64,000 nucleotides of DNA from Scenedesmus sp. PABB004 (GCA_014905635.1 JABVCE010000018.1:372001-436000), one strand, 5' to 3'. Shown: positions 448 through 61,938, numbered from the stretch's first letter. Notes: generated by a model not told the origin, from the letters alone. A program made the numbers and translations.

Positions 448-3366
448 TCAGTACCCGCCGACGCGCACGAGGCCGCCCTTCTTGCCGGTGCTGAGCGCGG
501 CGCCGTCGTAGCCGCCCGCGTCGGCGGCCAGGCCGCGCGTTCCCTTGGTGCGGGGGGCCTTCTTGTGGAACTTGTGCTCCGCCCGCTTGGCCTTGGCGCG
601 CGGGCCCTCGCCCAGGCCCTCCAGCAGCTCCAGGTCGGCGTCGCTCAGCAGCAGCGCGCCCGCCGGCGGCGCGCCGGCGGCCTCGCCGCTGGCGCCGGCG
701 GCCGCGCCGCCGCCGCCGTTGTCGCTGCTGCTGCCGTCGTCGTCGCTGCTGCTGCTGCCGTCGCTGTCGTCGCTGCTGCTGCTGCTGCTGCCGCCGCCGC
801 TGCTGCCGCCCCCGCCTGGCGCTGCTCCTCGCGCTGCTGCGCCGCCGCCGTCGCCGCGGCCGCGGCGAGCTGCTGCTGCCAGCCCTGCGCGAGGCGCATG
901 CCGTTGACGCTGCCCGGCAGCGGCGCGACTGTCGGCGCCCAGCCGCGCCCCGCGGCGCAGCCCGGCGGCAGCCTGCAGAAGAGGAGCCTGCCGTTGGTGT
1001 AGTCCCGCAGGATCTGCCGCCCCGCGCGCACCTCGTCCGGCAGGCCCGCCGACGCGGCCCAGCCGCGCGCGCGCGCGAGCGCGCGCAGCAGCAGCGTGCC
1101 CGGCGACAGCGCCGCGGGCGCGTCGGGCGCCGCGGCGTCGCGCCCGGCGTCAAAGCCAGGCCCCAGCGCCGCGCCGTAGACGGCCTCGAGCTGCGGCCGG
1201 GCCACGCGCGCCGCGACGACCTCGATCGGCGCGCGCGTGTCAGTGAGGCGGTCAAGGCTGATCACGCCCGCGGCGACCATCTCCGCCTTGCTCGCCGCAA
1301 AGCGCGGGAACACCAGGCCTGCGCGGGGGGCGAGGCGCGCGGGTGAGGGGGCGGAGGGCCGGAGCGCGCGGCGCGGCGCGAGGCGGCGGGCGGCGCGCGG
1401 CTCGGGGCGGCGCGGCGCGCGCACCCGGGCAGTCGCAGAGGCAGCAGGTCGGCGAGACGTTGAGCGTCTGGAAGTGCTTCGTCTTGCCCGGCGTCGGCGC
1501 GACGGCGGTCTTCTTGGCGCCAAAGATGGCGTTGATCGTGGACGACTTGCCGACGTTGGGGTAACCCACCAGGCCGACCACGACGCGGCGCCCCGGGTCG
1601 GCCCTGCGCGGCGCGGCGCGGCGCGGGCGTGTGTGCGCGCGTGCGCGCGGCGCGAGGAGCGGCTGCGCGGGCCGCGCGCGGCGCGCGGCGCGCGCGCACC
1701 TGCGCGGGTCGTCGTCGCCCGCCGCCGCGACGGCGTCGCGCGCGAGGCCCTCCAGCAGCTCCAGCAGCTCCTCGACGCTGAGTATGCGCGTGCGCCCGCG
1801 CCCGCCCACCGCGCCCGCGCCCGCGCCGGCGCCCGCGACCGCCGCGGCGGCGGGGAGGCCGAGGAGCGCGTAAAAGTGCTCCAGCACCGCCGCGCTGCTC
1901 GGCGCCACCTCACCGACCGCGAGCGCGTCGTGCCGCGCGCGCGCCTGCGCCTCGGACGCGGCGAACGCCGACCAGAACCCGTAGCGCACGCCGGCCGCCT
2001 CAAAGTGGTCGGCCCACGCGGCCCGGACCTCCTCCGGCAGCAGGTCGGCCTTGTTCAGCAGCACAAAGCTGGCCTTGGTGGCGTGCAGCTCGCGCGCATA
2101 GGCGGCGAGGTCGGTGGAAAAGTAGGTCAGCGGGTCGCGCGCGTCCACGACCTGCGCCGGGCGGGCGGCCGGGGCGCGGGCGGGCGGGCGGGCGGGCGGG
2201 GCGGGCGCGGTAAGGGGGCGTGCGGCGTTTGTCAGCGCGGAGCGGCGCGCGGCGAGCAGCGGCGGCGGCGGCGCGCCTGCACGACGATGTCGGAGCGCTC
2301 GAGCACGCGCCAGAGCTGGCGCCAGACCTCGAGGTTGCGCTCAAAGGGGGTGAGCATCAGCCCCTCCTCCTCCTCCACCACCGCCAGCGCCCTGGGCGCC
2401 CGGCGGCGGCGGGGCGGGCGCGGTCGGCCGCCGGGCGGCGGCGGCGGCGCAGCAGCAGCGGCGGCGTCGGCGGCGGCCCAGCAACGCGGCGGCGGCGGCG
2501 GCGGCGGCGCGGCGCACCGGCGCCAGTCGAGGAAGGCGGCCTTCTCCTGCGCGTCGAGCTGCTCCGCCGTGGTGCTCGCGTCCCAGGCGGGGCGGCGGGG
2601 GATGACGAGCAGCGCCGCCGCGCGCGCCTCGGCCTCCGCGCGCAGCGCCGCGCTCTGCTCCGCCGCGAGCGTGCCGTGCGCGCTGCTGCCGACGACGACC
2701 GGCTGGTAGCGCTCCGCGGTGAAGTCCCGGTCCGCCAGCTCCGCCTGCGCGCGCCGGGGTGGCGTATGCGCGTGTGTGAGCGTGCGTGTTCCGGCAAAGG
2801 CCTGCGGGCTGCTCGCCGGCGCACCATGGCCATGAGCTCGTCGAGGTCGTTGCGCTCCAGGATGCTCTGCATGCCGCCGCCCATGTCGGTGGTGTGGCGG
2901 CCGCCAAAGTTGCCGCCGCCGCCGATCTGCGGGGCACGGGCGTGCGCGGCGGCAGCAGCGGTGAGCGAGCGCGGCGGCGGCGGCGGCACCCAGCGGCGCG
3001 CGCGCTGCTGCTGCCACGGGCTGTGCGCGTGGCGCGGCGCACTGGCCGCGCTCCCGACGCGGCCGCGGGGCCGCAGGGGGCGCGCCGGCGCCGGGGCGGG
3101 CGCGACTGCACGCGCCATGCGCGGCGCCGCCCCCGGCCGTCGCCGCGCCATGACGCCCCCGCGCGGCGCCCCGGGAGTGCCGCCACAGCAGCAGCGTCCC
3201 GCCGCGCCGCGGGCCGGCCCGCGCCGGGCCCGCCGGCGCCCGCCAGGCGCCCCGGCCGCCCGCTCCGCAGCCCGGGCGCGGCGACGCGCACCTTGTGCCG
3301 TTTCGTGAGCGCGCTCCCCACTTTGGTGCCCCCCTGCGACCGCGCCTTGCCGTTGTGCTTCCCCAT
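448..3366 (-). CDS. LSG1: Large-subunit GTPase 1 homolog (circularly permuted GTPase, 60S biogenesis), about 7 exons
   Basis: Exons give MGKHNGK..., LTPFERNLEVWRQLWRVLERSDIVVQ|VVDARDPL, LLNKADLL (G4), VGLVGYPNVGKSSTINA (G1), TPGKTKHFQT, LCDCPG|LVFP and GRQILRDYTNGRLLFC. The C-terminus ...KGGLVRVGGY* (stop 448-450) needs a 1-nt frame correction near 810. Confidence 0.93.
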
Positions 3367-3752
3367 CGCGCCGCCGCCGCCGACGCGCCGGCGCCGCCGC
3401 TCGCCGCCCGCCGCTTGCGTGTGCTGCGCGCCGCTCGGTGGCTGCCCGTGCGGTGCGAGGTGGTGGCGCCGGTGATGTGGCGCGCGGCGGCCGCTCCCGG
3501 GCAGCGGCCGGCGGGGCGCGGTTTTTGACGGCGCCGCCGCTCCACCGCGTCCCTGCTTTTCCAGACACGCCGCCAGCGCTTCCCCGGTCGATCTCCTGGC
3601 CCGGGCCGCAGCTGCCCGCTCGCCCGTCGCGGTCTCGCTCGCGCGCGCGCGCGCGCCGACGCCGCCGCCCGCCTCGCGGCGCCCGCCGCCGCCGCCCCGG
3701 CCGGATCGGCCCGCGCCCGCAGCGCCGCGCGGCTCCCGCGCACCCGCCAGCC

Positions 3753-6483: not shown

Positions 6484-9400
6484 TCAGTCCAGGATCGTCT
6501 GCATGCTCTGCTTCGTCTCCTTGTCCAGCGCCGCCTGCGCGGCCGCGACGTCGCCGAGGTCCGCCGCCGGCGCGCCGCCGCCCATGCCGGCCGGCCGCGG
6601 CGGCAGCTTGAGCCGCCCCGGCATCACAGGCTCGCCGACCGGCGTGCCGTCGACGCTCGCGAGCACCTGCGCGGCCGCGCGGCGCGCGGCGCGGTCGGGG
6701 GCTGCGGCGGCGGGCGGCGGCCGGGCGCGCGCCGAGGCGCCGGCCGCCGCTGTGCGCTGCGCGACGCACCGTCTCCTCGTGCTCGGTGCTGTCCATGGTC
6801 TTGGCGAGCTCCAGCGTCGCATTCAGCCAGAGCAGGCACACGCCGACAAACACCACGGCCGTGAAGGGCAGCGCGGCGGCCATCGACCCGGTCGCCAGCA
6901 GCGCAGCCTGCGCGGCGGCGGGCGCGGTGGCGGCGGCGGGCGCGGCGGCGGGCGCGTTGGTGCCCTGCCAGCGCTCCACGCCGCGCGGCGGCGCCGGCGC
7001 TGGCAGCAGGCCGCCGTGCCGCGTGCCCGCCCTGCCGCCTGCCGGCGCCGCCTGCCGGCGCGCGCCGCGCGTGTCGCGCGCCTGCATGAGCCAGCTGCCG
7101 CCGCTCTTGGCGATGCTGTTGCCGAGCACGTCGACCGCCGCCTTGCCGGCCTCCTTCTCGCGGCGGTCCATGGTGATGAACACCATTTCCTGCGGCGCGC
7201 ACGCACGCACGGCGGCGGTGTGTGTGAGTGGGGGGCAGGGCTTAGGGCTCAGCCGAGCCGGGCCGAGCTGAGCCGAGCCGGGCCGGCCCGAGCTGAACTG
7301 AGGTGAGCTGAGGCAAGCCGAGGTGAGGTGAGGTGAGGTGAGGTGAGGTGAGCTAGGCAGTCGGCACCCCACCTTGGCGGGGTCAAAGAGGCTGTACTTG
7401 GCGGACCGCCCAAACACCTGCGGCGGCCGGCAGCGGCGGCGGCGACGCCAGCGTCAGCGCCGGGCCTGCGCCGCGGCGCCCGCGCATCCCGTGGGCCGGG
7501 CGCCGCCGCCACTGCCGCCCCGCGCCTGCGTGACGATGCCGGCGGCGGGCCGACCGCGACCAGCGCGGCCAGGAGGCTGCCGGGCACGGCCGCGCCGGCC
7601 GGGACCATGCTGCCTGCGCGCGTGCCGGCCAGGAGGCAGCGGCGGCGTCAGTGCCGGGGCGGCTGGGTCGCCGCCGGCGGCACAGGGCACCCGGCGGGGC
7701 CGCGCTTGCAGCCCGGCCAGGCAGCCCACCTGCAAAGAACACGGCACCGCTGGCCAGGCAGACGAGGGGCGTCATCAGCGCTGCGCCCCGCCAGCCCAGG
7801 CGCTGCGCGGTGCGGACGGCCACGGCGCGGCGCGGGCGAGCGTTGCTGCGCGGCGCCTGCGCGCGCCCGCCACCCGAGCGGCCCTGCGCCCCGCAGACAC
7901 ACATGACACACACATGACACACACATGACACACACATGGCACACACATGACACACGCATGACACACGCATGACACACGCATGACACACACATGACACACA
8001 CATGACACACACATGACACACACATGACACACAGCCCAGCACGCACCTGGAAGAAGAACTTGCTGACCAGCATGAGGCACACCGTCGCGGCGCCTGCGGG
8101 GGCGCGCAGCGGCGGCGGCGGCGGCGGCGGGCGTGCGCGCGGCGCCTGCGGGGGCGCGGCGGGGGCGCGCACGCGGTGTGTGAAACGCGGCGCACCCGTG
8201 AACGAGGCGACGTCGCCCATGACCGTGGCGTACTGCGTGGTGCTCGGATAGAGAGCCTTCATCTGACCCTTCCAAGCAAAGCCAAAGAGCTTGTGACTGA
8301 TGCCGTAGCCCATCACCAGCAGGGTGAGGTTGAGGATGCGCGGCGAGCTCCTGTGCGCGCGCGCGAAAGCGTCGGCCCGGCGCGCCGGCGCGGCGCGGCC
8401 AGGCGGCGCGCCGCCGGGGGCGCGCCGCACCGCAGCAACTCCATCGTGCCCTGGCGCTTCTCGCCGCCCGCCGGCGCGCCCGCCTTGGCCGCCTTAGCCG
8501 GCTTGGGCGGCCGCTCCGCCTTGGTGACGTGGGGGAAGACGGCCGAGTCCATCCACAGCCGCACAGCGCTCATGCAGGCGGTGACCACCAGAACCGCGCA
8601 GATCAGCAGCTGCGGCGGCGCGGCGCGGCGGGGCGGGACGCGCGCGGGCTCGACGCCGCCCGCGGCCCCGCGCCCGCGGCCGCGCCCGCGGCGGCGGCGG
8701 CGCGCGCCTGCAGCGCGAGGCGCTCGTCGCCGCCCGCGAGGCGCTGGCCGACAAAGCGCGTGAACGACCCCGCCGCGATGAGGCCGACGTTGGCGAGGAT
8801 GCCGAGCTTGGGATAGACCTGGCGGTGGCGTGCGTGTGCGTGTGCGTGTGAGTGGGTGCGCGTGTGCGTGTCAGCGCGGCTGCTCGCCAGATTGCCCCTG
8901 GAGGGAGAAGCGCCTGGCCGCGCGCCGCCGGGCCGGCCGGGGCGCGCGCGCGGGCGCGCGCGGCGCACGTCCTTGGCCTCCTCCACGCTGCACACGTCGT
9001 CGGCGAGCGACCTGCGGCGCGGCGGCGCGGGCGTGGGCGTCGCGGGCGCGCAGCGCGGCGGGCGCAGGGCGGCGACGCCCGCGCGTGCGCGCGCCGGCGC
9101 GGCGCGGCGCGGCGCGGGGCGCGCTGCTGGGCAGGCGCACCAGAACAGGAGCGAGATGGCCACGCTGCCCCAGAGCTCGGCGACGATGAAGAACAGGGCA
9201 AAGGTCCAGTGCGCGCCGACGCGGACAAAGCAGGCGAGGCTGTCGGGCAGCGTCGCAATGCAGCGCTCCGCCGCGGCCACAGGGTGCAGGATGTGCGCGT
9301 TGGGGAGCAGCACCGCGGCAAAGAGGGCAAAGAAGGCAGCGAGCGGCGCGAGCGCGGCGTGAAACACCGCGCGCGGCGGGAGGCGCTTGTTCTGCGCGCG

Positions 9401-11541: not shown

Positions 11542-12551
11542 ATGGCGCCGATGCCTGCCGCCGCCGCCGCCGCTGCTGCTGACGCCGACGCCGACGGCGA
11601 GTGTGCGGCGCGGCTGCTCGGCGGCGCGCCGCTCAGCGTCGAGGTCTCGTTTGCCGAGGACGGCGGCGCCGGCGGCGCTGCTGGCGCCGCGCCGCCGGCG
11701 GTGGCGCGGTGCCTCTACGCGGCGCACGCGCTCGCGCGCGCCGTGTGGCGGACCTGGGAGTTTGCGGTCGCGCTGATACTCATGCGCCTCGCGCCCGCGA
11801 GCCTGCTGCTGGTCAGCGCCTACGGCCTGCTCGAAGACGTGGCCCGCCTCGGCGCCGGCCCGCTCGTCGGCGGGTACGTCGACCGCACGGAGCGCCTGCC
11901 CGCCGCGGTCGCGTGCTACGGCGTGCAGAACGGCGCCATCGCCGTCTCCGCGGCCGCGGCGGGCCTGCTCGTGCGATTCGGCGCGAGCCTCGGAGCCGCG
12001 GTGCGGCGCGGGCGGGGGGGGGGGGGGCGGCGGTTGCGCGGGCGGGGCCGCGCCGCTGAGGCGGCGCGCCGCCGCGCCGGCCGCGCCTGGCGCAGGCCTC
12101 GGGCGCGCTGCTGTGGACGACTGTGCTGGCAGGGGCGTGCAGCAGCGTCGGCAGCCTGGGCGCGGCGGTCGCGGTGGAGCGCGAGTGGCCGGCGGTGCTG
12201 TGCGGCGATGATGCGGCGAGGCTGGGCCAGGTCAACTCGGGTGCGCGCGCTCGCGACGCCGGCGCCGGTGGCGGCGCGGCGGAGACCTGCGCGGGCGCGG
12301 GCCGCCCGCCGATCGCCCGCCGCCGCCGGCCCACCGCCGCGTCTGCCGCCGCCGCGCAGTGCTGCGCGCGATCGATTTGTCAAGCCAGATGCTCGCCCCG
12401 GTGGCGGCCGGCTTTCTTATGACCTTAGCAGGCGTGCTGCCGACGGTTGCGGCGCTCGCGCTGGCCTGCCTGGCCGCGTGGCCGCTGGAGTGCCTCCTGC
12501 TGCGCACGGCGCACGCGCGCTGCCACCGGCTCAGGCGCGCACGGGTGGCGG

Positions 12552-12587
<36 letters not shown>

Positions 12588-13512
12588 CCCGCCGTGCACG
12601 CGCGAGCGCCACCGCCGCCCGTGCCGCGCGCAGGCAGCCCAAGGCGCCGCGGCCGGCGCGCGCCGCGCCGCGCCCGTGCGCGGCGCTGCTCGGCTGCGCG
12701 GGCTGGCGCGCGTACGCGGAGCAGACGTCGACGCTGCTCGCGGGCGTCGCGCTCGCGCTGCTGTATCTGACTGTTTTATCGCTTGGTTACTTGATGACTG
12801 GATTCCTCACGGCAAGCGGCGTGCAAGAGTCAACACTGAGTCTGTTCCGGTGCGCGCGCGCGCGCGCGTGCTCTCGCAGGACGGCGGCGGGGAGGCCGGC
12901 CGTGCCCCGCCCGACGGCGGCCCGCCCCCGCCCCGCGCCGCGCCGCCGCCGCCCCGCGCGCGCAGGGCCGCGGGCGCGGCGTCGGGGCTGCTGGCGACGC
13001 TGACGTTCCGCCCGCTTGTGCGCGCGGTGGGCCTCGTGGGCGCGGGCGGCGTGGGCATCGCCTGGCAGCTGGCGTGCCTCGCGTGCGGCGTGGTGCCAAT
13101 CGCGGCGTCGCGCCTGGCGGGCGGCGGCGGCGGCCAGGCGGGCGGCGGCGCCCTGCTGTACGTGCTGCTGAGCGGGCTGGTGGCATCGCGCTTTGGTCTG
13201 TGGACGTTCGATCTGTCCGTGCTGCAGCAGCAGCAGGAGCTAGTGCCGGGGGAGCAGCTAGGGACAGTCAGCGGCGTGCAGGCGAGCCTCCAGAGCGCTT
13301 TTGAGATTGCCTCGTTCGTCGCGGGCTGCGTGCTGCACCGCCCGGAGCAGTTCCCCGTCCTGATGGCCGGCTCTGTCTGCGCCGTCGCCGCGGCGGCGGC
13401 GCTCTACGCTGCGCACGCCTGCAGGGGCGGCGGCCGCGCGGCGCCGGGCCCTGCAGCGGTGGTGGTGGCGCACCACGGCGGCGGCGGCGGGGGCGAGGCC
13501 GCGAAGCAGTGA
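11542..13512 (+). CDS. Ferroportin / SLC40 (IREG-type) metal exporter, about 6 exons
   Basis: LYAAHALARAVWRTWEFAVAL, GGYVDR, AVAVEREW, VNS|VLRAIDL..QMLAP, LLYLTVLSLGYLMT, SRFGLWTFDLSVLQQQQE and GVQASLQ. Confidence 0.9.
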
Positions 13513-14245: not shown

Positions 14246-15435
14246 TCACAGGTCTTGCAGGAACTGGCTGGGGTCGAGCGCCGACGCGGTGCCCGTGCCG
14301 GACAGCGTGCCCGAGTATGTCGCGCTGAGGCTCGTGCGCGACACGTGCACCCCGCACTCGCCGCCGCGCCCGCTGCTGCCGGTGCCGCCCAGCCAGGGGC
14401 CGCCCAGCACCACCGGCGTGAGCGGCTGCGCCGAGCCGCCGGCCGCCGACGACGCGCTCAGCTGCCGCGCCGCGGCGGCGCCGGGCGGCACGGGCACCGG
14501 CACCGCCACGCGCGCCACCGGCTGCGGCTGTGCCGCGCGCACGGCCTCGCGCGCCGGCGGCGTGCCCCCGACGAGCCGCCCCGTGCTGCCCGCCGCCGCG
14601 GCCGCCGCGGCTGCCGCGGCCGCAGCCGCGGCCGCCCCAGGCGAGCCGCCGCCGTCGCCGCCGGCGTCGCCGCCCAGGCCCGCCAGCGCGGGCGCGCTGT
14701 CGCGCGGGCTGTCGGGGTCGCTGGAGAGGTTGTCCAGCATCAGCTCCAGGCACGTCACCACCTGCAGGGCAGCGGCGGCGGCGGCGGCGTGAGCGGCGGC
14801 GTGTGAGCGGCAGCGTGAGCGGCGGCGTGCCGCACGGCCTCGGCGCGCGCGGCCGCTGCGCTGCGGCCGCCGCCGCCGCCGCGCCTGCTGGAAGCTGGGG
14901 CGATTGCTTGGCTCCGCGTCCCAGCAGGCGGTCATCAAGAGGCCGTACTCGTCGGGCATGTCGTCGGGCAGCGGCGGGCGCTGCTTCTGGATGACCACGC
15001 GCTCCACGACCGCGCCGTAGTGCAGCCCCCCGTACGCCTGGCTGTTGGTGAACACCTCCCACACTGCGCGGCGCGGCGCGGCGCGGGGCGCGCGGCGGCG
15101 TGGGCGGTCGCGCGGGGCGGCGCGGCAGCGGCACGCGGGGGCGTGCGTCGCGCGGGGCCGGGCGCGCGTGCGCGTGCGCGCCGCTCACTCATGATGCCAT
15201 AGGAGTAGCTGCGGGGGCGGCAGGCAAGGAGGGAGGGCGGGCGGCGGCGCGGCGGCGGGGCGGCGGACCGGGGGTCAGCGCGGCGCGGAGCGGGCGGTCG
15301 GGCGCGTGCGCGGGCGCGGGCGCGCCGGGGGCCCGCGGCGGCCGGCGCCGCGCGCGCGCCGCTCACACGTCGGCGGCGGTCGACATGTGTCCGCTGCGCA
15401 GCACCTCGGGCGCCATGTGCGTGATGGTGCCCTGC

Positions 15436-22218: not shown

Positions 22219-24399
22219 TCACGAGAACCAGCCCTTCTTGCTGCTGCTGCTGCCGCTGCTGCTGCCGCCCGCCTCCTCGCCATCAAACTCCTTCAGCAGC
22301 TCCTTCTGCCGCTCCGTGAGCCGCGCCGGCTTGATCACCCTGCGCGGGGCGCGGGTGACGCGCTCCGCCGCGCCCCGTCAGCCCGAGCGCGACCCGGGCG
22401 CCGCCGCCGCAGCACTGCAGCGGCCGTCCCGCCCCGCCGCCCGCCCCCGGCCCGGCCCGCGCGCGAGCGCGGCTGGCCAGCGCCTCACCGCACGGTCACG
22501 AGCTGGTCGCCGCGCCCGCGGCCACGCGGGTCGCCCACGCCCTTGCCGCGCATGCGCAGCACCTCGCCGTTGAGCGTCAGCGGCGGCACCGCCAGCTCGG
22601 CGAGGCCGTCGATGGTCGGCACCTGCAGCTTCCTGCAGCGCGGCGGCGCGCGGGTGCGGGCGCGGCGGCGCGGGCGCATCGGGCGCGCGCGCCGCGCCGC
22701 CGGCGCGCCGCCGGGCGCGCGGCGTGCGCGCCCGCGCCACGCACTTGCCCAGCAGCGCCTCGCTGAGGCGCATGGTCGTCGAGGTGAGCACGTCCAGCCC
22801 CTGCCGCGTGAACTGGGGGTGCGGGTCCACCTCGATTCGGAACAGCACGTTGAGGCGCTGCTGCCCGTCGCCCACCGGCGCGGCGACCTGCGCCGACGCG
22901 CGGCGGCGGCGGCGGGCGCGGCGGCGCGGGCGGCGCGCGCGGCGCGCGCGACGCGTGGGCCCGCCGGCGGCCGCGCGGGCGGCGATGGCTGCGGCCGCGA
23001 CTGCGGCTGCGGCGACGGCTGCGGCTGCGGGGCGCGCCTGTATCTGCTGCCCCGCGTCCACGCCGGGCGGGATGTCCACCTCCACCGGCTGCATCGTCGT
23101 GCCGACGACGCGCGAGAGGTCGACGCGCTTCTTGGTGCCCTTGGCCGCCTCCTGCGGGGCGCGGCGCGGTCGCGCCGCGGCGCGGCGCGGCCGCCGCGGT
23201 CACACCCCCCCCCCCCCCCCAGCAGCCGCCGCCGCCGGCGCCGCCGGCGGCGGTGCGCGTCCTGGCCGCCGCGCCGCGGCCGTGCGCCGCGCCGCGGCCG
23301 TGCGGTGCGTTGCGTTGCGCCGCACCATGAATGAGAGTCGCATCGAGCTCTCCACCACCATCATGCCGCCGCCAAAGAACTGGCTGAAGCCGCCCGGGTC
23401 GGCGCGGAAGAACGACTCAAAGATGTCCTGCGCGCTGAACGGCCCCGCGCCGCCGGGGCCGGCGCCAAAGCCGCCGCCAAAGCCGCCCGCGCCGCCGCCA
23501 AAGCCGCCCGCGCCGCCAAAGCCGCCCGGGCCGGGCCCGCCCTCGGCCTCCATGCGCTCCATGCCGTCCCGCCCGAGCGCGTCGTGCAGGCGCCGCTTCT
23601 CCGGGTCCCGCAGCGTCTCGTAGGCCTTGGAGACCTCCGTGAAGAGCTTGGCCGCCGCGGGGTCGTCCTGCGAGGTGGCCGCGGCGCGTCGGCGCGCCGG
23701 CCGCCGCGGGTGCCGCCGCCGCGCCGCTGCGCCGCGCGGGGCGGAGTCGGGCCCTTGCGCGGCGCGCCTTGTTGGTGTCCGGGTGGTACTTCTTCGCGAG
23801 CTTGTAGTAGCTCTTTTTGATCTCCTGCTCGCTCGCGGTCCGCGGCACGCCGAGGACTTCGTAGTAGTCCTTGGCCGCCGCGGCGCCTGCGCACGGGCGG
23901 CGCCACAAGCCCCGCCGCGCGGGCCGGGCGCGGGCGTCGGGCGGTGGGCGGGCGGGGCGGCGCGGGGCGGGCGCGCGCAGGCGCGCGCTCGCGGCCGCCG
24001 CCGGCGTCGCCCGACCGCCCCCAACCCACCCGCGCTGGTGTGTATGCTGCGCGGCCCCGGCGCCGCCGCGCCGTGCCAGCCGCTGCCGCCTGCGGGGGTC
24101 GGCGGCGGCGCGGCGCGCGGTGAGGGCGCGCCCCGGCCGCCGCCGCGCGCGGCGGCGCGGCACGCCGCAAGCGCCGGTGGCGCACCTCTGCTGCTGCCGC
24201 CGCCCGCGTGCGCCAGCTGCGCGCCCCATGGGGCCGCGGCGCCCTGGCCCGCGGCTGCCAGCAGGCTGGGGCAGGCGCAGAGCGCGCGCGCCGCCTGGGC
24301 CGCGGCCGCGCCAGCCCCCGCGCCGGCCGCCGCTGCTGCCGCGCCGCGCCCCGCCGCCGCCGCCGCGGCGAGGCAGCGCCAGGCCCCCAGCCCGCGCAT
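22219..24399 (-). CDS. DnaJ/Hsp40 co-chaperone (J domain, G/F region, C-terminal domain; no Zn finger seen), probably mitochondrial
   Basis: [23 protein letters not shown] (HPD motif), [11 protein letters not shown], Gly/Phe-rich linker, [36 protein letters not shown]; Arg/Ala-rich presequence. Confidence 0.92.
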
Positions 24400-36583: not shown

Positions 36584-37748
36584 GCACGCGCGCGCAGGTG
36601 TCGGACAAGGAGCGCGCGGCGCAGCAGGACAACCTGTTCAAGGACGTGGCCGGCATCCTGGTGGACAAGACGGTCAACCCCGACACGAGCCGCCCCTACA
36701 CGCTCACGATGCTCGAGCGCGCACTGCGCGACGTGCACTTCAACCCCGACCCCAAAAAGTCGGCCAAGCAGCAGGCGCTCGAGGTGCGCACGCGGCGGGC
36801 GGGGGCATGGGGTGTGGGGTGTGTGTGCTGCGGAGAGGCGAGGCGGGGGGCGCGCTGCCCGGGGGAGGGAAGGGAGGGAGAGCGCCGCCCGAGACGCGCC
36901 CCGGGCCCGCCGCCGCCGCTTCCGCAGGTGCTGCCGACGCTGCAGGCGCGCTTTCCCATCCAGCGCGCACGCATGCGGCTGCGGCTGCAGGTGCCGGCGG
37001 CGCACCAGGAGGCGCTGCTGGGCATGCTGGACGCGTCGGCGGCGGCGGTGGAGAGCATCGACGCCGCCGGCCACGACGCCGCCGTCGTCGCGCAGGCACG
37101 CGCCGCGCGGCAGCCCGCCGGCGTGCGGGGCGCGCGGGGAGGCCGCAGGGCTCGCAGCGGGGCGCCCCGGCCCTGCCTCGCCCCGCCTGACCCGGCTGGC
37201 CCGCCGGTGTGTGTCGCTGCACGCGCGCGCGGCGCACGCAGGTCGAGCCGGGCGTGTTCCGTGAGCTGCACGTGTTCATGCAGGACACCACGCACCGGCA
37301 GGGCCGCATCGAGGTGCTCAGCTTTGCCGTGACCGCCGAGGGCGGCGCCGACGATTTCAACAGCCTCGGCGGCAGCGAGACCGCGGAGCAGCCGTTCCGC
37401 GACGACGCAGCGCCGGCGCCGGCGCCGCCGCTGCCGCTGGGCGCCGGCGGCGCGGCGGCGCTGCCGCGGCAGCGCCCCGCCGGCGGCGCGGCCGAGGCGC
37501 CGAGCAGCACCGCCCGCGTGCTGTATGCGCGCGGCAGCGTAGCGGGCCTGCCGGACGAGTTTGCGTCGCGGCGCGAGCGCTTTGCGGAGCTGGACGGCCT
37601 GCAGCCAGGGTGGCAGGTCGAGCTGGCGGCGCGCGGCGAGAGCGTGGACGCCGTGTTCTTCGCGCCCGACGGCGCGCGCGTCGGCACGTTTGCGGCCGCG
37701 CGGCGGCAGGCGCTCGCCGCGCACAAGGCGGCGGCGCAGGGCGGCTGA
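35867..37748 (+). CDS. SBDS: Ribosome maturation factor SBDS/Sdo1 with C-terminal extension
   Basis: [81 protein letters not shown]. Confidence 0.95.
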
Positions 37749-38167: not shown

Positions 38168-41100
38168 TCACTCGCACTTGATCGCCTGCGGCGCGGCGGC
38201 GGCGGCGCCGGCCGGGACGCGCCGCGCGCGTGGGCGGGAGAGCCGGCGCGCCGCCTTCCGCGTGCCGCCGCGCTGCTGGCTGCCGCCGGCGCCGGCGCGC
38301 CCACCTGGTAGATGCGGCGCACAAACATGAGGCTCGCGCGCCACCCGACCGTCCCCAGCATCAGGAAGAAGCCGAAGCACACCTGCGTGGACGCAGCAGC
38401 AGGCGCAGCAGGGATGCGCGGTGTGGGCGGCCGGCGGCCGGGCGGTGGCGGGCGGGGACGACGCGGCGGCGGAGGACGCGGCGGCGGAGGACGCGCCGGC
38501 GGCGCGCTCTCCCACACGCACACGCGCACGCACACGCGGCCACAGCCACGCGGCCACAGCCGCGCCCAGCTCCCCACACCCCGCCCCGCGCACCATGGCG
38601 TTGTAGCCGAAGAAAAAGGCGGTCTGCATGAACCCGCTCATGCCGCTGCGCGCGGCGTAGTAGTAGAAGCAGTAGCCGTACACAAACAGCGCCGTCGACC
38701 CGCCTGCGGCGCGCGGGCGGGCGGGCGCCGCGTGTGCCGCGTGTGCAGCGCCGCGCGCGTCGCATGTCGCGTGTCGCGCGTCGCATGTCGCGTGTCGCGC
38801 GTCGCATGTCGCGTGTCGCGCGTCGCGTGCGCGCCGGCGGCAGAGGTGGTGGCGGCGGCGCGCGCTGGCTGGCGCCGCGCGCGTCGCGGCGCGGCGCACC
38901 GCAGAGGAAGGAGCGCCACCACCAGCGGTGGTCCTCGACCGCGAGCTGGAAGTAGGTCAGCGCGACGGTGATGAACGCGGTCACTATGATGAGGATGATG
39001 TAGACGATGAACAGGATGCTCCAAATGATGTACACCTGGCAGCAGCGGCAGCAGCGGCAGCGGCGGCGGCAGCAGCAGGGGTGAGCAGCAGGGGAGAGCG
39101 CGGGCGCGGCGGGCGGGGCGCGAGGGCGGCGGGCGAGGGGTGAGGCGCGGGGTGAGGCGCGGCGCGCGCGCGCGGGCGGGCGGGCCGGGAGGGCAGCATG
39201 CAGCATGCAAACGCATGCAAACGCGCGCGGGCGTGCGCCGCGCGCGGCGGTCGGCTGCGCGGCGAGACAAGGCCCTGCGCGCCTTGTGGCCCCAGACGCT
39301 GGCGAAGATGTAGTAGAGCTCCACGTAGATGGCGCTGAAGGGCAGGAAGCCGGCCATGACCATCTGGGGCACCGCCGTCCTGCGGGGTGGCGGCGGCAAG
39401 GGCAAGGGGTGAGTTGTGTGCGTGCGTGTGTGAGGGTGTGCGGATGTGTGAGGGTGTGCGTGTGCGTGTGAGGTGTGGGCGGTGGGGCGGCGCGGGCGCG
39501 GGGGCCGCCGCACCTGTACCAGGGCAGCTCGGGGATCTCGCGGGGGTACTTGTTGGTTCTGTGTGCGGCGTGCGTGCGTGCGGGTGGGGCGTGTGCGCGT
39601 TGAGGTGGGCGCGGCGGGCGCCGGCCGACCGCGGGCGCCGCCCAGCTGGGGCCCACTGCCGCCGCGGCCCGCCGCGCTCCGCGCGCGCACCGGCAGGGCG
39701 CCGCAAACTCTGCCTTTTTGTTCTTGCCCGCGATGCCGCCCGCGACGGTGAGCGGGATGGTCACGAGGCCCCATATGACGAGGATGATGACGATCGTGCC
39801 AAACGGCAGCGCCGCCGTCGACTGGCGGCGGCGGCACGCGAGAAGTGACGGTGTGAGTGCGCGAGTGTGTGCGAGTGTGTGCGTGCGTGGGGCGAGCGCG
39901 CGCAGGGCGCCGGCGGCTCGCGCAGAGCACGCAGCGCGGCGCAGCGCACAGCGCAGCGCAGCGCGGCGCAGCGCAGCGCAGAGCACGCAGCGCGGCGCAG
40001 CGCGGCGCGGCGCACAGCACAGCGCGCAGAGCACGCCCCAGCACGCACGCGGTAGACGATGGCGACTGTGTTTAGGAACATGAACATCCCGAAGAAGGGC
40101 CCCGCGTACACAAACACGGTGAGCAGGATGTTGTGCACCCACGCGCCGCCCTCCATCTGGGCGTAGTAGCTCGCGCCGACGTAGCCCGCGACGCAGGCGG
40201 TGAGGGCGTAGAGCACAATGAGCGCGGTGAAGAGCGCGCCGCGGTTGTAGGGGTAGAAGACGCCGACGAGCGCGAGGCCAAAGATGCAGAGCGAGAGCGC
40301 AAAGATCTGCGTCCCCGTGCCCACGAACGAGGCAAAGAGGCTCTTGGCCGGCGGGAAGCGGAAGACGTCGCCGTGGATGTACTTCCACCCGCTCTCCTCC
40401 TCCTCCATCGCGGCTGCGGGCGGCGCGTGTGTGGGTGGGCGCGGCGGCGTGGGTGGGCGGGTGCGCAGGTGGGCGGGAGCGAGGGAGAGCCCGGCGGGCT
40501 GTCCGAGGGAGGGGGAGGCGCGGCGGTGCGGCAGCGCGGCGGCCGGGGGCCCCCGCCGCCTCCGTGCGCAGACGCCGCCCGCCCACAGCAGCACAGCACA
40601 ACGCGCGCGCGCCCGCAACTCGCGGCCCGCCCCGCGCACCGTCCTCGCGGCTGAACTTGACAAAGTCTGCCTTGAGCACGCGCAGCAGGATGGTCGCGAG
40701 GAAGCCGGTCAGCAGCAGCACCGTCACGCAGCTGTTGATGATGGAGAACCAGTGGATCTGATTGAGAGGGATGACGATGATGCCCCAGGGTTCAAGGGTG
40801 CAGGGTTCAGGAGGGGTGCCGGGACGGGCGGCGGGCGGCGGTGCGGGCGCGGCGCCGCGGTGAGCGCGCGGGCCGGCCGGCGAACGGCGTGGGCGCGGCG
40901 CCCCGCCCAGCTGCCCCGCCCCAGCCGCCGCCGCGCGCCCCCGCGTCCGCCGCCGCTCCCGCCGCGTGTCCCGACGCGCCTCGAGGTGGATGGGGTTAAG
41001 CGGGAAGCGCTCGTAGCGCGCGAGGCGCTGGTCAAACGGGATGCTCACGGCGCTCCACTTGACGCTGTAGCTGAACGCAACCTGCGCGCGCGCGCGGGCG

Positions 41101-42810
41101 CGCCGCGGGGCTGACGCCAGCGCCCGCCGCTCTCCGCGCGCCGCAGCGCCGCCCGCCGCCGCCCTCTGCGCGCCGCGCCCCGCCGCCACGCCGCCGCGCC
41201 GCCGCCGCCGCCGCAGCGCCGCCCTCCCCGCGCGCCCCGCCGCCGCGCCGCCCTCCCCGCGCCGCCGCGCGCGCCTTGACGTCGCGCGTGTTTTCGCTGA
41301 TGTCGACCGCCTGCGCGGGGTCTGTGAGGACGTTGATCTCGATCACGCGGTCGCCGTTGTACTTGATGTCAAAGTCGACGTGGCTGAACAGGTAAAACCT
41401 GTACTCCGGCTGGCCCGCCTTGGGGATGATCTTCTCAACCTGGGCGCGCGCCGCGCGGCGCAGACGAGCGCGTGAGCAGGAGGCGAGGCGCGCGCGGGCG
41501 GCGGGCGGGCGCGGAGAGCCGCCCGCCGCAGCTGCTGCCGCCGCTGGCTGCTGCCGGGCGTCCCGGCTCCAGCTGCTGCCCTGGCCGCCGTTGCAGCGCC
41601 GCCGCTCCGACGCGCGCTGCCGCTGCGGCCCCGTCGCTCCGGCCGCCGCTCCAGCACGCGCTGCCGCCGCAGCGCCGCCCCGCGCCCCTCCGCCCCCGCC
41701 CCCGCCCTGCCAGTGCGCGTCGCCCCCACCTTGCCGATGAAGCCCCAGACCGGCAGGTCATCGTAGTACATCTGAAAGTACCAGTCCTCCATCACCGCCT
41801 GCAGCGCAGCGTGCAGTGAGCGCGCATCGGGCGCGGAAGCGGCTCAGCGCGGGGGCGGCTCAGCGCGCGGCGCCGCCCGCTGCGAGCGCCGCGGGCGCCC
41901 TGCCGCTGCCCGCTGCCGCCGCCTGCTACCGCCGCCCGCTGCCACTGCCCGCCAGCGCCGCCCTCTGCCGCCGCCCGCCAGCGCAACCGGCTGCCGCCGC
42001 CCGCTGCCGCCGCGCGCTGGTGCCGGCGCCTGCGTGCCGGCGCCCTCGGGGGCGCTGCCGCAGCGGCTCACGCGTCTGAACTTGATCATGTCCTCGTCCG
42101 ACAGCGTCTTCTCGCAGATGCGCTCCGCGGTGCGCTCGACGAGAAAGTCGAGCGCGTAGGGCGTGGTGGCCATGCGGTTCGCGTCGACCACCTGCCGCCG
42201 GCGGCCGCGGCGGCCGCGGCGGCAGCGCGGGCGGCGCGGGCGAGGCGCGGCCGTGACGCGCGGGCGCACCGCTACGGCGCAGGGGCGGGCGGGGACGGCC
42301 GGCCGGGCGGCGCACACGCACCTCGCCCATGCCGAGCGTCTTGTAGCGCACGCCGTCCTTGGGCTTGCAGTACGGCAGCTTGTAGTACTCGTACGTCTCG
42401 CTGCGGCGGGCGCGGGGCGGTCAGAAGCGACCAGGGCGCGCGGGGCAGCGTCGGGCGCCGCGTGGGCGCACCTGGGGTTGGCGAACGGCCCCACCTGGCG
42501 ATGCAGCAGCAGCAGCGGCAGCAGCACGGGGTCTTGGGTCAGCCAGGGCCGCTGGCGGCGCAGCGGCGCGCCGTGCGGCACGGCCGTGCGTCCCTGGACC
42601 CCCTGCCGCGCCCGAGGCGCGCACCTTGGCCGCATACAGCGGCACTGGGTCGCCCTTGCCAAACTTGTGGTCGTTGCCGAGCAGCTGGCGGCCGTGCGGG
42701 CGGCCCAGCGACGCCCCAAGCACGCCTGAGCTCGCGGGGACCGCTGCCGCGCCCGCCAGCAGCGCCAGCAGCGCGGCTGCTGCCAGGGCGCTCTGCGATG
42801 GCCGCCCCAT
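38168..42810 (-). CDS. Transmembrane 9 superfamily (nonaspanin/EMP70) protein, many exons
   Basis: Signal peptide; KVGPFANP, YFQMYYDDLPVWGFIG, IHWFSIINS, EESGWKYIHGDVFRFP, GFLPFSAIYVELYYIF, EDHRWWWRSF, C-terminal AIKCE (KxD/E Golgi retention motif). Confidence 0.96.
38757..38826. repeat. Intronic 21-bp tandem repeat (about 3 copies)
   Basis: gcgtcgcatgtcgcgtgtcgc repeated. Confidence 0.8.
39925..40030. repeat. Intronic degenerate pentamer repeat (GCAGC/GCGGC)
   Basis: Read directly inside a TM9SF intron. Confidence 0.65.
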
Positions 42811-43150: not shown

Positions 43151-46100
43151 ATGGAGGGCCTGCGGGCGTGGCTGCGGGAGCGGCACAGCCTGGCGGTGGC
43201 GGTGTTCGCCACGCCCGCGGCGGAGGCGGTGCTGGCGCGCAGTGGCGTGGGCGTGGTCGACCTGCTGCGCCCCGTGGCGCTGGTCAACAGCCTGAACGGT
43301 GCGCCAGCGCGCCGGCAGCCGGCCACGGCTGAGCGGCGGCGCGCGCAGGCCGGCAGACAAACGCGCCCGCGCCGCCGCCGCACGTGCTGCCGCTGCTGCT
43401 GCGCCGCCGCAGTGCCGATGCGCGTGGGCGAGTTTTCGTCGCGCGTGCAGGAGGTGCAGCTGGGGCTGTACGGCGCGGCGACGATGTTCCAGCCGCCGCC
43501 AGAGGTGCGCGGGTCGGGGCGCGGGTCCGAGCGCGGGCGAGCGGCGTCGGGCGCGGCCGCGCCCAGCGCTGCCGCGACGGCCGCAGGTGCTGGACGAGGC
43601 GCTGCGGCAGCTGCTCGTGCGCGCGGCGGCGCGCCACGCCGACCTCGCGCCGCGGCCCGACCTGGTGGCGCACGTGCGCGCGGGTGAGCGGGCGCGCAGC
43701 GGCGCACAACCGCCGCCCGCGGTGCGCCGCGCCCGCCGCCCGCGCGCGCCGCAGCGCTCACGCCGCGGCCGCCGCGCAGAGTCGCCCGCCGCGCTGTGCC
43801 CGTGGTTCACGGCGTACGTGGCGGAGTTCATGCGCCTCCTGCGCTTCACGGAGCACGAGGCGCTGGACCACCCCGCCGGCGGTGCGGCGCGGCGCGGCCG
43901 CGGCCGCGGGCAGCGCGGCCAGCACTGTGCTCGTCCCTCTGGGTCGGCCGCCCACCCGCTGTTGCCCCGCGGCCACGCGGCGCCGCGGTCCGCAGGCCTG
44001 TTTGTGATGCCCTCCAACGCCGCCGCGCCGCTCGCTGTCGCGGAGAAGCTGCTCGCGCCGGGCGGCGCGGACGCACCGCTGCGCGGCAGCGCCGCCGTCA
44101 TGCCGCCGCAGGACCACCTCTTTGCAAAGCACTTTGTGCTGCTGCAGGACGTTGCGGGCGGCATGGACGACGCGCAGTGAGCGCCAGCCCGGGGCAGCGC
44201 GCCGCGCCGCGGCCGGCCGCCGGCGCGCGCGGCGGCCGCTGCGCGCAGGGGCCACCGCCCACCACGCGCCGCCCGCCACGTGCCGGCCGCCGCCGCAGGG
44301 CGCTGATGAATCTCGCCACGCTCAGCAACGTGTACGGCGCGGCCAACTGCTCCGTGCTGCGCGTCTATGCCGGCGGCGGCGGCGGCGAGGGCGTGCCGCC
44401 GGCGGTGTTCCAGGCCGTGCGGCACGCGACGCTGCCCGGCGGCGGCGCGGGTGCGGGGGCGGCCGCGCGGCGGGCGCTGCGCCGGCTCGCATGCGCGCGC
44501 GCACGGGCGGCTGGCGGCCGGCGGCCGACGCCGGCGCCGGCGCCGGTGCCGCGCCCGCAGGCGAGCCGGCGCAGCGCCCGCCGGAGCCGCCCGGCGGCCT
44601 GGGCGCGGGGCTGGGGCCGGACGACCTGGCCGCCGCGGGGCAGCTGCTGCGCGACTTTGCGGAGCGCACGCTGCTGCCGCGCGTGGAGGAGCGCGTCGCG
44701 CGGCTCAACCTCGCCGTCTCGACCGCGCGCAAGGGCCTCAAAAACCGCCTCACGCGCCTGTGGAAGGGCGCCGCGGGCGAGGCCGCGCCGGCGCAGGCAC
44801 GCCGCTGCGCGCGGCGCGTGGCGCGGCCCCGCCGCCGCCGCCGCCGCGGCGAAGGCCGCGCGCGCCATGCCCCGCGCCCGCGCCCGCGGGCCCCGCCCAC
44901 GCGCGTCTGCCCGCGGCGGCGCGCAGGGCGACGTGACGTACGCGTGGCACAGCGTGGAGGGCCAGATGCGGTGCCTCGCCGACCTCTCCTTCCTGCTGGG
45001 CCAGCACGACGCCGCCGCGGCGACGTACCGCCTCGCGGCGCAGGACTACCTCGCAGCGCCCAACGCGCGCTGGTACGCCGGCGCCGAGGTGCGACCTGCC
45101 GCGCGCACCGCGAGAGCCGCGAGTGCGCCCGGCTGCCGCCGCACCCGCGCGCCCGGCCGCGACGCCCGCCCGCCTGCGCTGCGCGTGTGCGGGGCCCGGC
45201 GCGCGCAGGAGATGATCGGGCTGTGCGCGCTGCTGAGCGGCGACCCGGGCGCCGACCCGCTCAAGTACCTCGGTCGCGCGCACGACCACTATGGCCGCAC
45301 GCGCGCCCGGGGCGGCCGCATGCTCGCGACGCGCGCGATGCTCACCGCGGCGGCGTACCAGGCCGCCGGCGGCAGGTGCGCGCGCGCGCGTGCGCGCACC
45401 GCACGCCGCCGCCGCCGCCCGCCGCCGCGGGGGCGCCTGCCCAGCGCGCGCGCCGGCGCCGTCGCCGCACGGTCGCCTCTGCGCCTCTGCCGCCGGCGCA
45501 GGCACCTCGCGGCCAACGCCTCGCTCATGCGGGCGCATCTCGAGGAGGAGCCTGCGCGCGCGGGGCTGCTGCTCGAGGCCTCGGCCTACGCGCTGCTGCG
45601 CGCGTCGCCGCCCGCGCTGCGCAAGGCGGGCTTTGCGCTCGTGCTCGCGGGGCTGCGCTACCACGCGGCCGGCAACCGCCGCCTCGCCGCGCACTGCTAC
45701 AGCCAGGCGCGCGTGGCGGTCGGCCGCATGCGCGCGGCGCGGCGCGGCGCGGCGTGGGCCCGTGCGGCCGCCAGCCCCGGCGCGGCGCGGCGCGCAGGTG
45801 TCGCGCATCTACTCGCCCGGCGCGTGGCGGGGCATCAGCGAGCACCTCGCCGACGTCCTGGGCAAGCAGTGCGCGGAGCTCGGCGACGCCGCGGGCGCGC
45901 TGCGCTATGCGGCGGCGCTGCTCGACTGCGCGCACCGCCCGGCGGCGGCGCAGGCGGCCCACCTGGCCCGCTTCATGCACGCACTCGCCGCGGCGGGCGC
46001 CACCGCGGTGCCGGGCCTCGTGCTGCCCGCGGTGGTGACGGACAGCGTGTTTGTGCGGCACGCCGACACGCGGTGCTACGCGCCCGGCGCGCCGCCGCCG

Positions 46101-47013: not shown

Positions 47014-47101
<88 letters not shown>

Positions 47102-51004: not shown

Positions 51005-51092
51005 CGCGGTGACGCGGCGCGGTCGGGCAGGGGCTGCGCAGCCGTGTTGACAAAGCAACGCGGCGCCGCGGCGCACGCTCGCCGCGCGGGGC

Positions 51093-60708: not shown

Positions 60709-61938
60709 ATGGGCGCCGCCGACGGCGCGACGAGCGTCGCGGCGCTGCAGGCGCGCTTCGCGGCGCTGGACGCGCGGCTGGGCGGGGCCGAGGCCGCGGC
60801 GGCGCTCTCGGCGCGCTGGCGCGCGATCGAGCAGCGCGTCGCCGCCGCGGAGCGCGCGCTCGCCGCCGCGGCGCCGGCGCAGCGGGAGGGGGTGCAGCAG
60901 GGGCAGCAGCATGAGGGGCAGCAGGGCGGCGGCGGCGCCGCCGCCGGCGCGGCGGCGGCCACGGCGGCGGCAGCAGCGGCGGCGGCCGCGCGGGACGCGG
61001 CGCTCGCGGCGGCGCTCGTCGACGCGAGCCCCATCCAGGCGCGCCTGGCGCGGGAGCTGCACGAAAAGGGCTTCTCCGACTTCAGGCGCGCCCTCGGGGG
61101 CGGCGCGCGCCGCCGCGTGCGCCGGGCAGCCGCGCCCTGTGCGGCCGCGCGCGTGACCCGCGGCGCCGCAGGTTTGTGCGCGTGCCGCCCGACTACTACG
61201 ACCGCCCGCTCGCGTGGCGGCGCGACGTGCTGCGCGCGGCGAGCGAGGCGCACCTGTGCAAGAGCATCATCATGGAGAACACGCGCGCGCACAGCAGCGT
61301 GCGGGGCTGGGAGGACCCCACCAACTCAAAGTACTACGTCGTCATCGTGCAGGCGCGCGCTGCGCGCGCTGCGCGCGTGCTGGGGACGTGCTGGGCACAC
61401 CTGCTGGGCGCGCGCTGGGGACGTGCTGGGCGCTCGCGCTGGGCGCGTGCTGGGGACGTGCTGGGCGCGCTGGGCACCTGCTGGGCGCGCGCGCTGGGCA
61501 CACCTGCTGGGCGTGCGCTGGGGACGTGCTGGGCGCACCTGCTGGGCGCGCGTGCTCGGCGCGCGCGCTGGGCAGGCTGCGGCGGCCGACGCGCGCCGCC
61601 GTGCCCCGCCCCCGCGCCCGCAGTACACGGCGCGGCTGAACGCGGACAAGCTCAAGTCCCACATCCACCGCCTGGCGGGCGGCAAGGTGGGCAAGCAGTA
61701 CTTCAACATGCGCCTCTGCCCCGAGGACGTGAGCGACGCGCTCTCGGGCTACGAGCACAACGCGGTGAGCCCGATCGGCATCAAGACGCCGCTCCCGGTC
61801 GTGCTGAGCCACCGCATCCCCGCGCTGCGCCCCGACTTTTTCTTCATCGGCGCCGGCGAGACGGACCTCAAGGTCGGGCTCTCGGCCGCCGAGTTTGTGG
61901 ACCGCTACCGCCCGTTCGTGCTCGACTGCACGCACTGA
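60709..61938 (+). CDS. YbaK/ProX-like aminoacyl-tRNA editing domain protein (3 exons)
   Basis: FVRVPPDYYD.PL..RR..L, HLCKSIIMEN, SKYYVVIVQ|YTARLN, LSGYEHNAVSPIG, FFFIGAGE.DLKVG. Confidence 0.85.
   Translation: MGAADGATSVAALQARFAALDARLGGAEAAAALSARWRAIEQRVAAAERALAAAAPAQREGVQQGQQHEGQQGGGGAAAGAAAATAAAAAAAAARDAALAAALVDASPIQARLARELHEKGFSDFRRALGGGARRRVRRAAAPCAAARVTRGAAGLCACRPTTTTARSRGGATCCARRARRTCARASSWRTRARTAACGAGRTPPTQSTTSSSCRRALRALRACWGRAGHTCWARAGDVLGARAGRVLGTCWARWAPAGRARWAHLLGVRWGRAGRTCWARVLGARAGQAAAADARRRAPPPRPQYTARLNADKLKSHIHRLAGGKVGKQYFNMRLCPEDVSDALSGYEHNAVSPIGIKTPLPVVLSHRIPALRPDFFFIGAGETDLKVGLSAAEFVDRYRPFVLDCTH
61353..61575. repeat. Intronic degenerate 10-11-bp tandem repeat (GCTGGGCGCGC / GCTGGGGACGT / GCTGGGCACCT variants)
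   Basis: Fills most of the second YbaK intron. Confidence 0.8.

Follow-up and report, generated by a model that had tools for sequence, protein, structure and literature searches.

In a 64,000-nt stretch of the genome of the green alga Scenedesmus sp. PABB004 (GCA_014905635.1 JABVCE010000018.1:372001-436000; hereafter the window), protein homology confirms the use of GC in place of GT as the donor dinucleotide of many introns as a real feature, well above chance. An initial annotation, drawn from the bare nucleotide sequence, had named 20 such donors, each referred to here by its first intronic base, and all 20 read exon AG/GC on their strand (the slash marks the exon–intron boundary). Among the introns that homology supports, exon AG at positions -2 and -1 precedes all 15 GC donors and only 16 of the 35 GT donors (Fisher p = 2.4e-4). 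We consider it highly probable that these are U2-type donors in which an AT-to-GC bias has acted on intron position +2, and that the resulting C survives only after exon AG, by virtue of pairing with U1 small nuclear RNA (snRNA).

The setting is one of extreme base composition. The window has no N and a GC content of 76–82% throughout, well above 60% GC, as would be expected of algae with a raised share of GC donors; the whole genome is given as 39.8 Mb, 78.5% GC and 7,092 genes (PMC12571836), in a comparative paper where the words 'intron' and 'splice' do not occur. The same source gives lower values for other Sphaeropleales, about 57% GC in Tetradesmus and about 71.5% in Raphidocelis. A six-frame Pfam scan of the window identified some 19 eukaryotic genes, spread over both strands and with closest homologs in chlorophycean green algae, among them LSG1, a plastid-type ATP/ADP transporter (NTT), FAM32A, ferroportin, kinases, DnaJ, CASP, SBDS, TM9SF, TRAPPC8, a SET protein, an MFS transporter, a Mei2-like RRM protein and a YbaK-like protein. 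GC occurs 27,774 times against 4,581 for GT (sixfold) and the heptamer AGGCGCG 75 times on the two strands, so that the donor motif is uninformative by itself and protein homology is required. Nearly all reading frames are open over hundreds of bases, and an 'in-frame' junction therefore carries little weight here. Introns of TM9SF, NTT and CASP are richer in GC than their exons (85% GC, 7.4% A and 7.5% T, compared with 70%, 48.5% and 94% GC at codon positions 1, 2 and 3), a contrast through which coding potential splits exons from introns very sharply. TM9SF, NTT, CASP and TRAPPC8 carry 5–15 introns each.

Junctions were located with a GeneWise-like protein-to-genome spliced aligner, written for this analysis, that never consults the exon bases before the donor. 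It was run with GT donors only, with GT or GC, and, as a control, with all 16 dinucleotides at equal cost; in the control mode, all 15 junctions obtained by aligning TM9SF with the homolog P0006, and likewise all 15 obtained with P0023, had GT or GC donors, from which it follows that the aligner finds true boundaries without being given the dinucleotide. We used eight homologs for TM9SF, six for NTT, nine for CASP and, for TRAPPC8, eight full-length homologs at 45707 and 13 at 44797. Fragment proteins (P0172, P0184 and others) were dropped because they gave inconsistent structures and are probably unspliced open reading frame (ORF) calls, and the TRAPPC8 fragments were replaced by homologs of 947–1569 residues. 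Spliced alignment yields many one-off GC introns in poorly conserved termini; only junctions common to several homologs were counted. Support is called residue-exact where it comes from a spliced homolog alignment, from contiguous matches to a structure or profile, or from colinear uninterrupted metagenome genes.

A second tool, an ab initio gene finder combining a 3-periodic Markov model with splice-site position weight matrices (35 training introns), recovers 17 of the 20 donors. When run on single strands it fuses genes and produces shadow exons, and 13 of its 31 GC-donor calls lack exon AG; the three of these that could be checked against homologs were all wrong. It disagrees with homology at 25308 (true donor 25284), 45737 (true donor 45707) and 47826 (true GT donor 47814). 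For these reasons it served solely for a rough intron count and for contrasts of coding potential. It also predicts an AG-type GC donor outside the 20, in the MFS transporter (54386-54573, minus strand; GAG/GCGCTC, 188 nt, phase 0).

That GC donors restore conserved protein, as first proposed, holds to the residue for 15 of the 20 introns, while four others (DnaJ 23037, SBDS 37096, TRAPPC8 44797 and kinase 14884) are probable and the ferroportin donor at 12535 falls where homology offers no check (Table 1). The donor sequences are as uniform as had been described, with AG/GCGCG at 17 sites, AG/GCACG at two (37096 and 44797) and AG/GCAAG at one (25284).

Table 1. GC-AG introns and candidate GC-AG introns of the window, with the number of homologs selecting each junction in the GT-or-GC mode and in the any-dinucleotide mode of the spliced aligner.
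Feature	Coordinates	Strand	Donor	Length (nt)	Phase	Support	Homologs, GT or GC	Homologs, any dinucleotide
LSG1 GC-AG intron	2152..2276	-	CAG/GCGCGC	125	0	residue-exact		
NTT (TLC ATP/ADP transporter) GC-AG intron	8610..8707	-	CAG/GCGCGC	98	0	residue-exact		
NTT GC-AG intron	6908..7081	-	CAG/GCGCGA	174	0	residue-exact		
Ferroportin candidate GC-AG intron	12535..12633	+	CAG/GCGCGC	99	2	unverified		
TKL-type kinase candidate GC-AG intron	14762..14884	-	CAG/GCGCGG	123	0	probable		
DnaJ J-domain GC-AG intron	23668..23767	-	AAG/GCGCGC	100	0	residue-exact		
DnaJ C-terminal domain candidate GC-AG intron	22888..23037	-	CAG/GCGCGC	150	0	probable		
CASP GC-AG intron	25284..25415	+	GAG/GCAAGA	132	0	residue-exact	8/9	8/9
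CASP GC-AG intron	25572..25699	+	CAG/GCGCGC	128	0	residue-exact	9/9	9/9
CASP GC-AG intron	25814..25935	+	CAG/GCGCGC	122	0	residue-exact	8/9	7/9
CASP GC-AG intron	26074..26180	+	CAG/GCGCGG	107	0	residue-exact	9/9	2/9
CASP GC-AG intron	27575..27702	+	CAG/GCGCGG	128	0	residue-exact	9/9	7/9
SBDS candidate GC-AG intron	37096..37241	+	CAG/GCACGC	146	0	probable		
TM9SF GC-AG intron	41082..41274	-	AAG/GCGCGC	193	0	residue-exact	6/8	
TM9SF GC-AG intron	40758..40979	-	GAG/GCGCGT	222	0	residue-exact	8/8	8/8
TM9SF GC-AG intron	39036..39282	-	AAG/GCGCGC	247	0	residue-exact	8/8	8/8
TRAPPC8 candidate GC-AG intron	44797..44926	+	CAG/GCACGC	130	0	probable		
TRAPPC8 GC-AG intron	45707..45797	+	CAG/GCGCGC	91	0	residue-exact	8/8 full-length	8/8
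YbaK/ProX-like GC-AG intron	61086..61171	+	CAG/GCGCGC	86	2 (AG/G = Arg)	residue-exact		
YbaK/ProX-like GC-AG intron	61353..61623	+	CAG/GCGCGC	271	0	residue-exact		

CASP has five GC donors beside three GT donors, and restricting it to GT loses 173–320 score units; at 25814 reading through meets a stop after 33 nt, and the Pfam family CASP_C is matched on both sides of 27575, over positions 4-202 before the junction and 197-250 after it. When any dinucleotide is allowed at 26074, seven of the nine alignments move by one codon to a CG donor, an implausible choice that we regard as alignment noise. TM9SF has 15 introns, 12 with GT and three with GC, and loses 112–126 units under GT-only alignment; an in-frame GT at 41280 would drop the residues VK next to the 41274 donor, which are conserved in the three homologs displayed, and costs 7–21 units in eight of eight homologs. 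In NTT, four of six homologs select the 8707 junction and all six the 7081 junction, the latter also in the all-16 mode. Both NTT introns are present in the NCBI protein 'AATP2 [Scenedesmus sp. PABB004]' (P0142), identical to the spliced translation of the window over 711 of 711 residues, which means that the deposited annotation already includes GC-AG introns.

Some of the same genes hold oddities of their own. In CASP, a 56-nt segment (26722-26777, plus strand) is skipped with five of nine homologs from a GC donor without exon AG (GCG/GCGCCG), and in shifted versions with others; it is shorter than every confirmed intron (those are at least 71 nt) and is probably an insertion relative to the homologs, or alternatively an exception to the AG rule, and was left out of the counts. 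P0142 joins FAM32A to NTT through a 576-nt 'intron' (9915-10490, minus strand) with an atypical GTCGGC donor, flanked by exons at 10491-10871 and 9552-9914; it holds both Pfam families PF08555 and PF03219, and looks like a chimeric gene model merging two adjacent genes. In TRAPPC8 a predicted exon (47000-47131, plus strand) closes with a long glutamine run, a low-complexity insertion in a conserved trafficking protein.

Elsewhere, contiguous matches fix the junction. The exons flanking LSG1 2276, the upstream one ending at 2277, match human LSG1 at 145-179 and 180-245 and yeast Lsg1 at 170-203 and 204-271, in both cases without a gap, and an in-frame GT 6 nt upstream would remove a conserved VQ. 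At DnaJ 23767, residues 3-39 of the upstream exon correspond to positions 2-38 of NCBIfam NF008035 and residues 1-58 of the downstream exon to 39-90, so that the profile runs contiguously from 38 to 39 over the junction; Pfam DnaJ covers positions 1-33 and 36-63 in the two exons. For the YbaK-like gene, related metagenome loci (L001, L003, L004 and L007-L010) supply the reference. In the uninterrupted ORFs of L003, L004 and L007-L010 a single codon separates the exon matches on either side of 61086 (...KGFSDF R FVRAP... in L003 and L004), and at 61353 the exon matches abut in a single frame in L001 (1671/1672) and L004 (693/694; ...YVVI(V/I)Q YT...). These seven relatives lack both GC-AG introns at these positions; the two introns are thus not shared, and would represent either a gain here or a loss there. 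Introns at other places in the YbaK-like gene occur in L002 and L004.

Most of the GC donors could in principle have been mis-called, the transcripts using a nearby GT or retaining the segment and the fit to homologs being a by-product of open frames at 79% GC. The openness of the frames lends this some appeal, as do in-frame GT dinucleotides close to several donors (6 nt upstream at LSG1, TM9SF 41274 and YbaK 61353, and 24 nt downstream at YbaK 61353 and 27 nt downstream at SBDS) and the small margin, 1–17 bits, by which the ab initio finder prefers the exact donor. We nevertheless find it very improbable: the GT alternatives at LSG1, TM9SF 41274 and YbaK 61353 would remove residues conserved in homologs, GT-only alignment costs 91–320 score units per gene over TM9SF, NTT and CASP, six of the 20 sites (among them CASP 25572, NTT 7081 and kinase 14884) have no GT within 45 nt, and measurement at 18 of the sites shows the intron interior to be non-coding in each of the three frames.

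Seen from the exon side, GC makes up 15 of the 31 AG-type donors and none of the 19 non-AG donors. This distribution also bears on whether the C at +2 might have been introduced into true GT donors by mistake during assembly or polishing. The base calls at +2 are those of the assembly, but an error would need to strike +2 only in donors preceded by AG, while sparing 16 AG/GT donors and 19 non-AG donors, which makes such an origin exceedingly unlikely. The exon ends had been described as CAG, AAG or GAG, and the base at -3 is indeed C in 15 cases, A in three and G in two; the last codon is not always NAG, however, as 61086 is a phase 2 intron that splits its codon AG/G, and 12535 would also be phase 2 if the coding potential of its upstream exon is followed. 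Apart from 61086, all of the 15 firm GC introns are phase 0 (14 of 15, compared with 19 of 35 GT introns; p = 0.009). With A at only 1.7% of third codon positions, AG at the close of an exon mostly belongs to a CAG, AAG or GAG codon, and GC-AG introns are for that reason nearly all phase 0.

The listed GC-AG introns are otherwise ordinary U2-type introns. The two donor classes share the same pattern at positions +3 to +6, GCG followed mostly by C, with G, C and G at +3, +4 and +5 in 17, 19 and 20 of the 20 GC donors and in 34, 25 and 34 of the 35 GT donors. The acceptor is CAG in all 20 GC-AG introns and in all 35 training introns, and median lengths are 128 nt (GC) and 127.5 nt (GT). A U12-type origin was rejected, as neither the U12 donor (RTATCC) nor the branch motif, in their generally known forms, occurs in any of the 20. 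An introner-like repeat family was likewise rejected: in an all-vs-all blastn of the 20 GC and 34 GT introns the best match scored 72.5 bits, with identities of 75–81%, the best pairs matched over about 100 nt of low-complexity sequence, and GC-GC pairs showed no excess over GC-GT pairs. As to the 3' end, a G or C usually precedes the CAG acceptor, the preceding tract is rich in C and G instead of T, and a YTRAY branch-point motif is found in the last 70 nt of at most three of the 20 GC-AG introns.

To account for these features, we propose that a strong AT-to-GC bias, through mutation or biased gene conversion, drives the T at donor position +2 towards C. Pressure in this direction is visible in composition, the confirmed introns having 85–90% GC and about 7.5% T. 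The C would persist only behind an exon-terminal AG, mostly CAG, because pairing of exon bases -3 to -1 with the U1 snRNA 5' end would offset the C:A mismatch that arises at +2. Where exon AG is lacking, the donor would retain its T, and about half of the AG-type donors would already have become GC. The classical donor is GTAAGT, as against GTGCGY here, and by textbook U1 pairing an intron side of the latter kind would contribute little to the helix, so that exon AG would become obligatory once the +2 pair is lost. In line with this proposal, GC 5' splice sites are known to mismatch U1, to be offset by a stronger remaining consensus and to be frequent in GC-rich lower eukaryotes (PMC3167603). 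The earlier statement that GC pressure has eroded the +2 T wherever exonic AG compensates fits the data in its dependence on AG, but 'wherever' was too strong, since 16 of the 31 AG-type donors keep GT.

The same statement had been taken to imply a relaxed or adapted system of 5' splice-site recognition, which does not follow, as a strict need for AG is what the standard helix between U1 and the 5' splice site predicts (PMC3167603). An altered splicing machinery, with a variant U1 snRNA or changes in U1C or LUC7, would accept C at +2 as well as U, and GC donors would then not be weak sites. A GC-donor share far over the approximately 1% of most eukaryotes and the presence of GC at about half of the AG-type donors would both be expected from such a change. 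A well-recognised +2 C, however, needs no extra exon pairing, and a U1 adapted to it would dispense with that pairing, yet AG precedes every firm GC donor and no non-AG donor is GC; the strictness of the rule thus favours standard U1 pairing. Standard spliceosomes elsewhere, moreover, already process GC-AG introns (PMC7072748, PMC3167603), and we judge altered machinery to be decidedly unlikely. An Rfam scan of the 64-kb window gave no family match.

Several points weigh against our interpretation of compensated U2-type GC donors. Splicing is deduced from protein colinearity only, the T-to-C direction of change is one that we infer, and the GC content of introns differs only marginally between donor classes (0.899 for GC donors compared with 0.855 for GT donors; Mann-Whitney p = 0.05 with the 15 firm sites, 0.026 with the full set of 20). 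The abundance of GC leads both the aligner and the ab initio finder to invent GC 'introns' in weakly conserved stretches, so that the genome-wide share of GC donors cannot be read from predictions; and the 15 GC donors among 50 homology-supported introns (30%) come from genes preselected through the earlier flagging. Five of the 20 junctions, finally, lack exact fixing by homology. In SBDS, an in-frame GTGCGG at 37123, 27 nt downstream of 37096, is a rival donor. In TRAPPC8, the donor 44797 is chosen with only five of 13 homologs, other GC sites being chosen with the remaining users of its acceptor. Nothing downstream of the kinase 14884 junction shows homology, and profile and Protein Data Bank (PDB) searches found no homology spanning the ferroportin junction, where an intron from 12535 to 12633, one from 12515 to 12637 and read-through without an intron stand as competing solutions.

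For four of these five junctions there is evidence that makes the GC donor probable. The GT-only model of SBDS, which uses 37123, scores 10.3 bits below the GC solution; the downstream exon begins at SBDS_C position 44, and the 56 residues of the upstream exon would be about the length needed for the rest of domain II and SBDS_C positions 1-43. PDB searches with the two SBDS exons gave no useful match. Neither Pfam nor NCBIfam matched the upstream exon of SBDS, exons one and two of the YbaK-like gene or the TRAPPC8 exon that ends at 45706. The TRAPPC8 acceptor 44926 is selected with nine of 13 homologs; the sole GT option, 44818 (GTGGCG), scores 7–23 units lower in the 10 homologs that resort to it and has a C at +5, where 34 of 35 GT donors have another base, and Pfam Trs85 covers 266-318 upstream of 44797 and 340-391 downstream. 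At DnaJ 23037, DnaJ_C is matched over positions 11-48 by residues 1-37 of the 38 in the upstream exon, and the match resumes at position 60 in the downstream exon; alternative upstream donors would cut matched residues, and a PDB search with the read-through gave no match. The exon upstream of kinase 14884 corresponds to positions 195-253 of the 258 of PK_Tyr_Ser-Thr, up to the exon's final residue, the 123-nt interior is non-coding in all frames, and a GT-only ab initio model costs 26.9 bits. Ferroportin 12535, for its part, sits in the variable loop that links the two transporter halves, as placed by profile matches and the PDB search; coding potential drops by about 60 bits along a tract of (CGC)n, and the GC donor favoured ab initio is the one at 12515. 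A run of CGC triplets lies at 12557-12592 (plus strand) in this loop or intron and would encode poly-arginine if read through.

How common GC-AG introns are can be gauged for this one window. The strand-resolved ab initio model gives 104–138 introns, in agreement with the initial count of 110-130, and 15–20 GC donors among them amount to about 11–19%, all 20 to roughly 14–19% or about one intron in six; the figure of about 15% proposed earlier for the window lies within this range. The model's own GC share of 29–30% is inflated. The figure of about 1% with which it had been compared is correct as a baseline for typical eukaryotes, yet shares of 14–60% have been published for other GC-rich algae.

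Comparison with described systems places the window within a known range. A broad survey puts the GT-AG introns of animals, fungi and plants at about 98% and finds that genome GC correlates with splice-site GC (PMC7072748). Like U2-type GC-AG introns in general, those described here start with GC, end with AG and otherwise carry the GT-donor consensus of their organism (PMC3167603, PMC7072748), and a stronger exon-side consensus offsets the U1 mismatch at +2 (PMC3167603); they differ in their share, which is roughly 14–19% in the window but only about 1% in animals, fungi and plants (PMC7072748), and in that the exon rule, elsewhere a tendency, is absolute in this sample. In Emiliania huxleyi, 56–64% of donors are GC at a genome GC of 65% (PMC4028052). 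This too is a GC-rich alga with very common GC donors and AG acceptors, which its authors credit to genome GC and for which GT-expecting ab initio models mis-predict junctions (PMC4028052), but it is a haptophyte with 65% GC and a majority of GC donors, whereas Scenedesmus sp. PABB004 is a chlorophyte with about 79% GC and a lower share.

Micromonas pusilla CCMP1545 has 25.6% GC donors; 79% of these lie in introns that carry the D-IE1 introner element, and among regular introns the GC-donor share is 9.7% (PMC4815162). This green alga resembles ours in its high GC-donor share, visible only when evidence-based models permitted GC (PMC4815162); its GC donors, however, lie mostly in introner elements, whereas the GC-AG introns here belong to no shared repeat family. 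Among pelagophytes, GC-AG introns are predicted at about 14–17% in Aureococcus anophagefferens and 14% in Pelagomonas calceolata, compared with 0.32% in the low-GC Aureoumbra (bioRxiv 10.1101/2024.10.30.620910). These shares are near our estimate and are ascribed to high genome GC, although the pelagophytes are stramenopiles with 0.14–0.9 introns per gene (bioRxiv 10.1101/2024.10.30.620910), far from the number carried by the genes of the window. The excess of GC donors has been attributed to genome GC in all three cases (PMC4028052, PMC4815162, bioRxiv 10.1101/2024.10.30.620910), and within the limited literature collection searched we found no paper describing splice sites of this alga or of the Sphaeropleales. 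The phenomenon is known from other algae and its explanation is the known one; the present case is rather extreme.

Beyond this, one may speculate that Scenedesmus sp. PABB004 has the most GC-rich of intron-rich nuclear genomes, in which +2 would be conditionally neutral (about 50% C after AG and 0% otherwise). Such a genome would amount to a natural titration of the U1 pairing that a 5' splice site requires, and the lineage may be heading towards an Emiliania-like state in which most donors are GC and U1, U1C or LUC7 have possibly co-adapted; we hold this extension to be rather doubtful. For the annotation of the Scenedesmus sp. PABB004 genome the consequences are more direct, in that gene finders expecting GT will break or truncate genes, and the AG/GC rule is a simple prior that would better the annotation of this and similar GC-rich algae. 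Because such introns are already documented in other algae, the case extends a known pattern and opens no new one, but the contrast between donors without exon AG, none of which are GC, and those with it, half of which are, may provide a quantitative handle on compensation within the U1:5' splice-site helix under extreme GC pressure.

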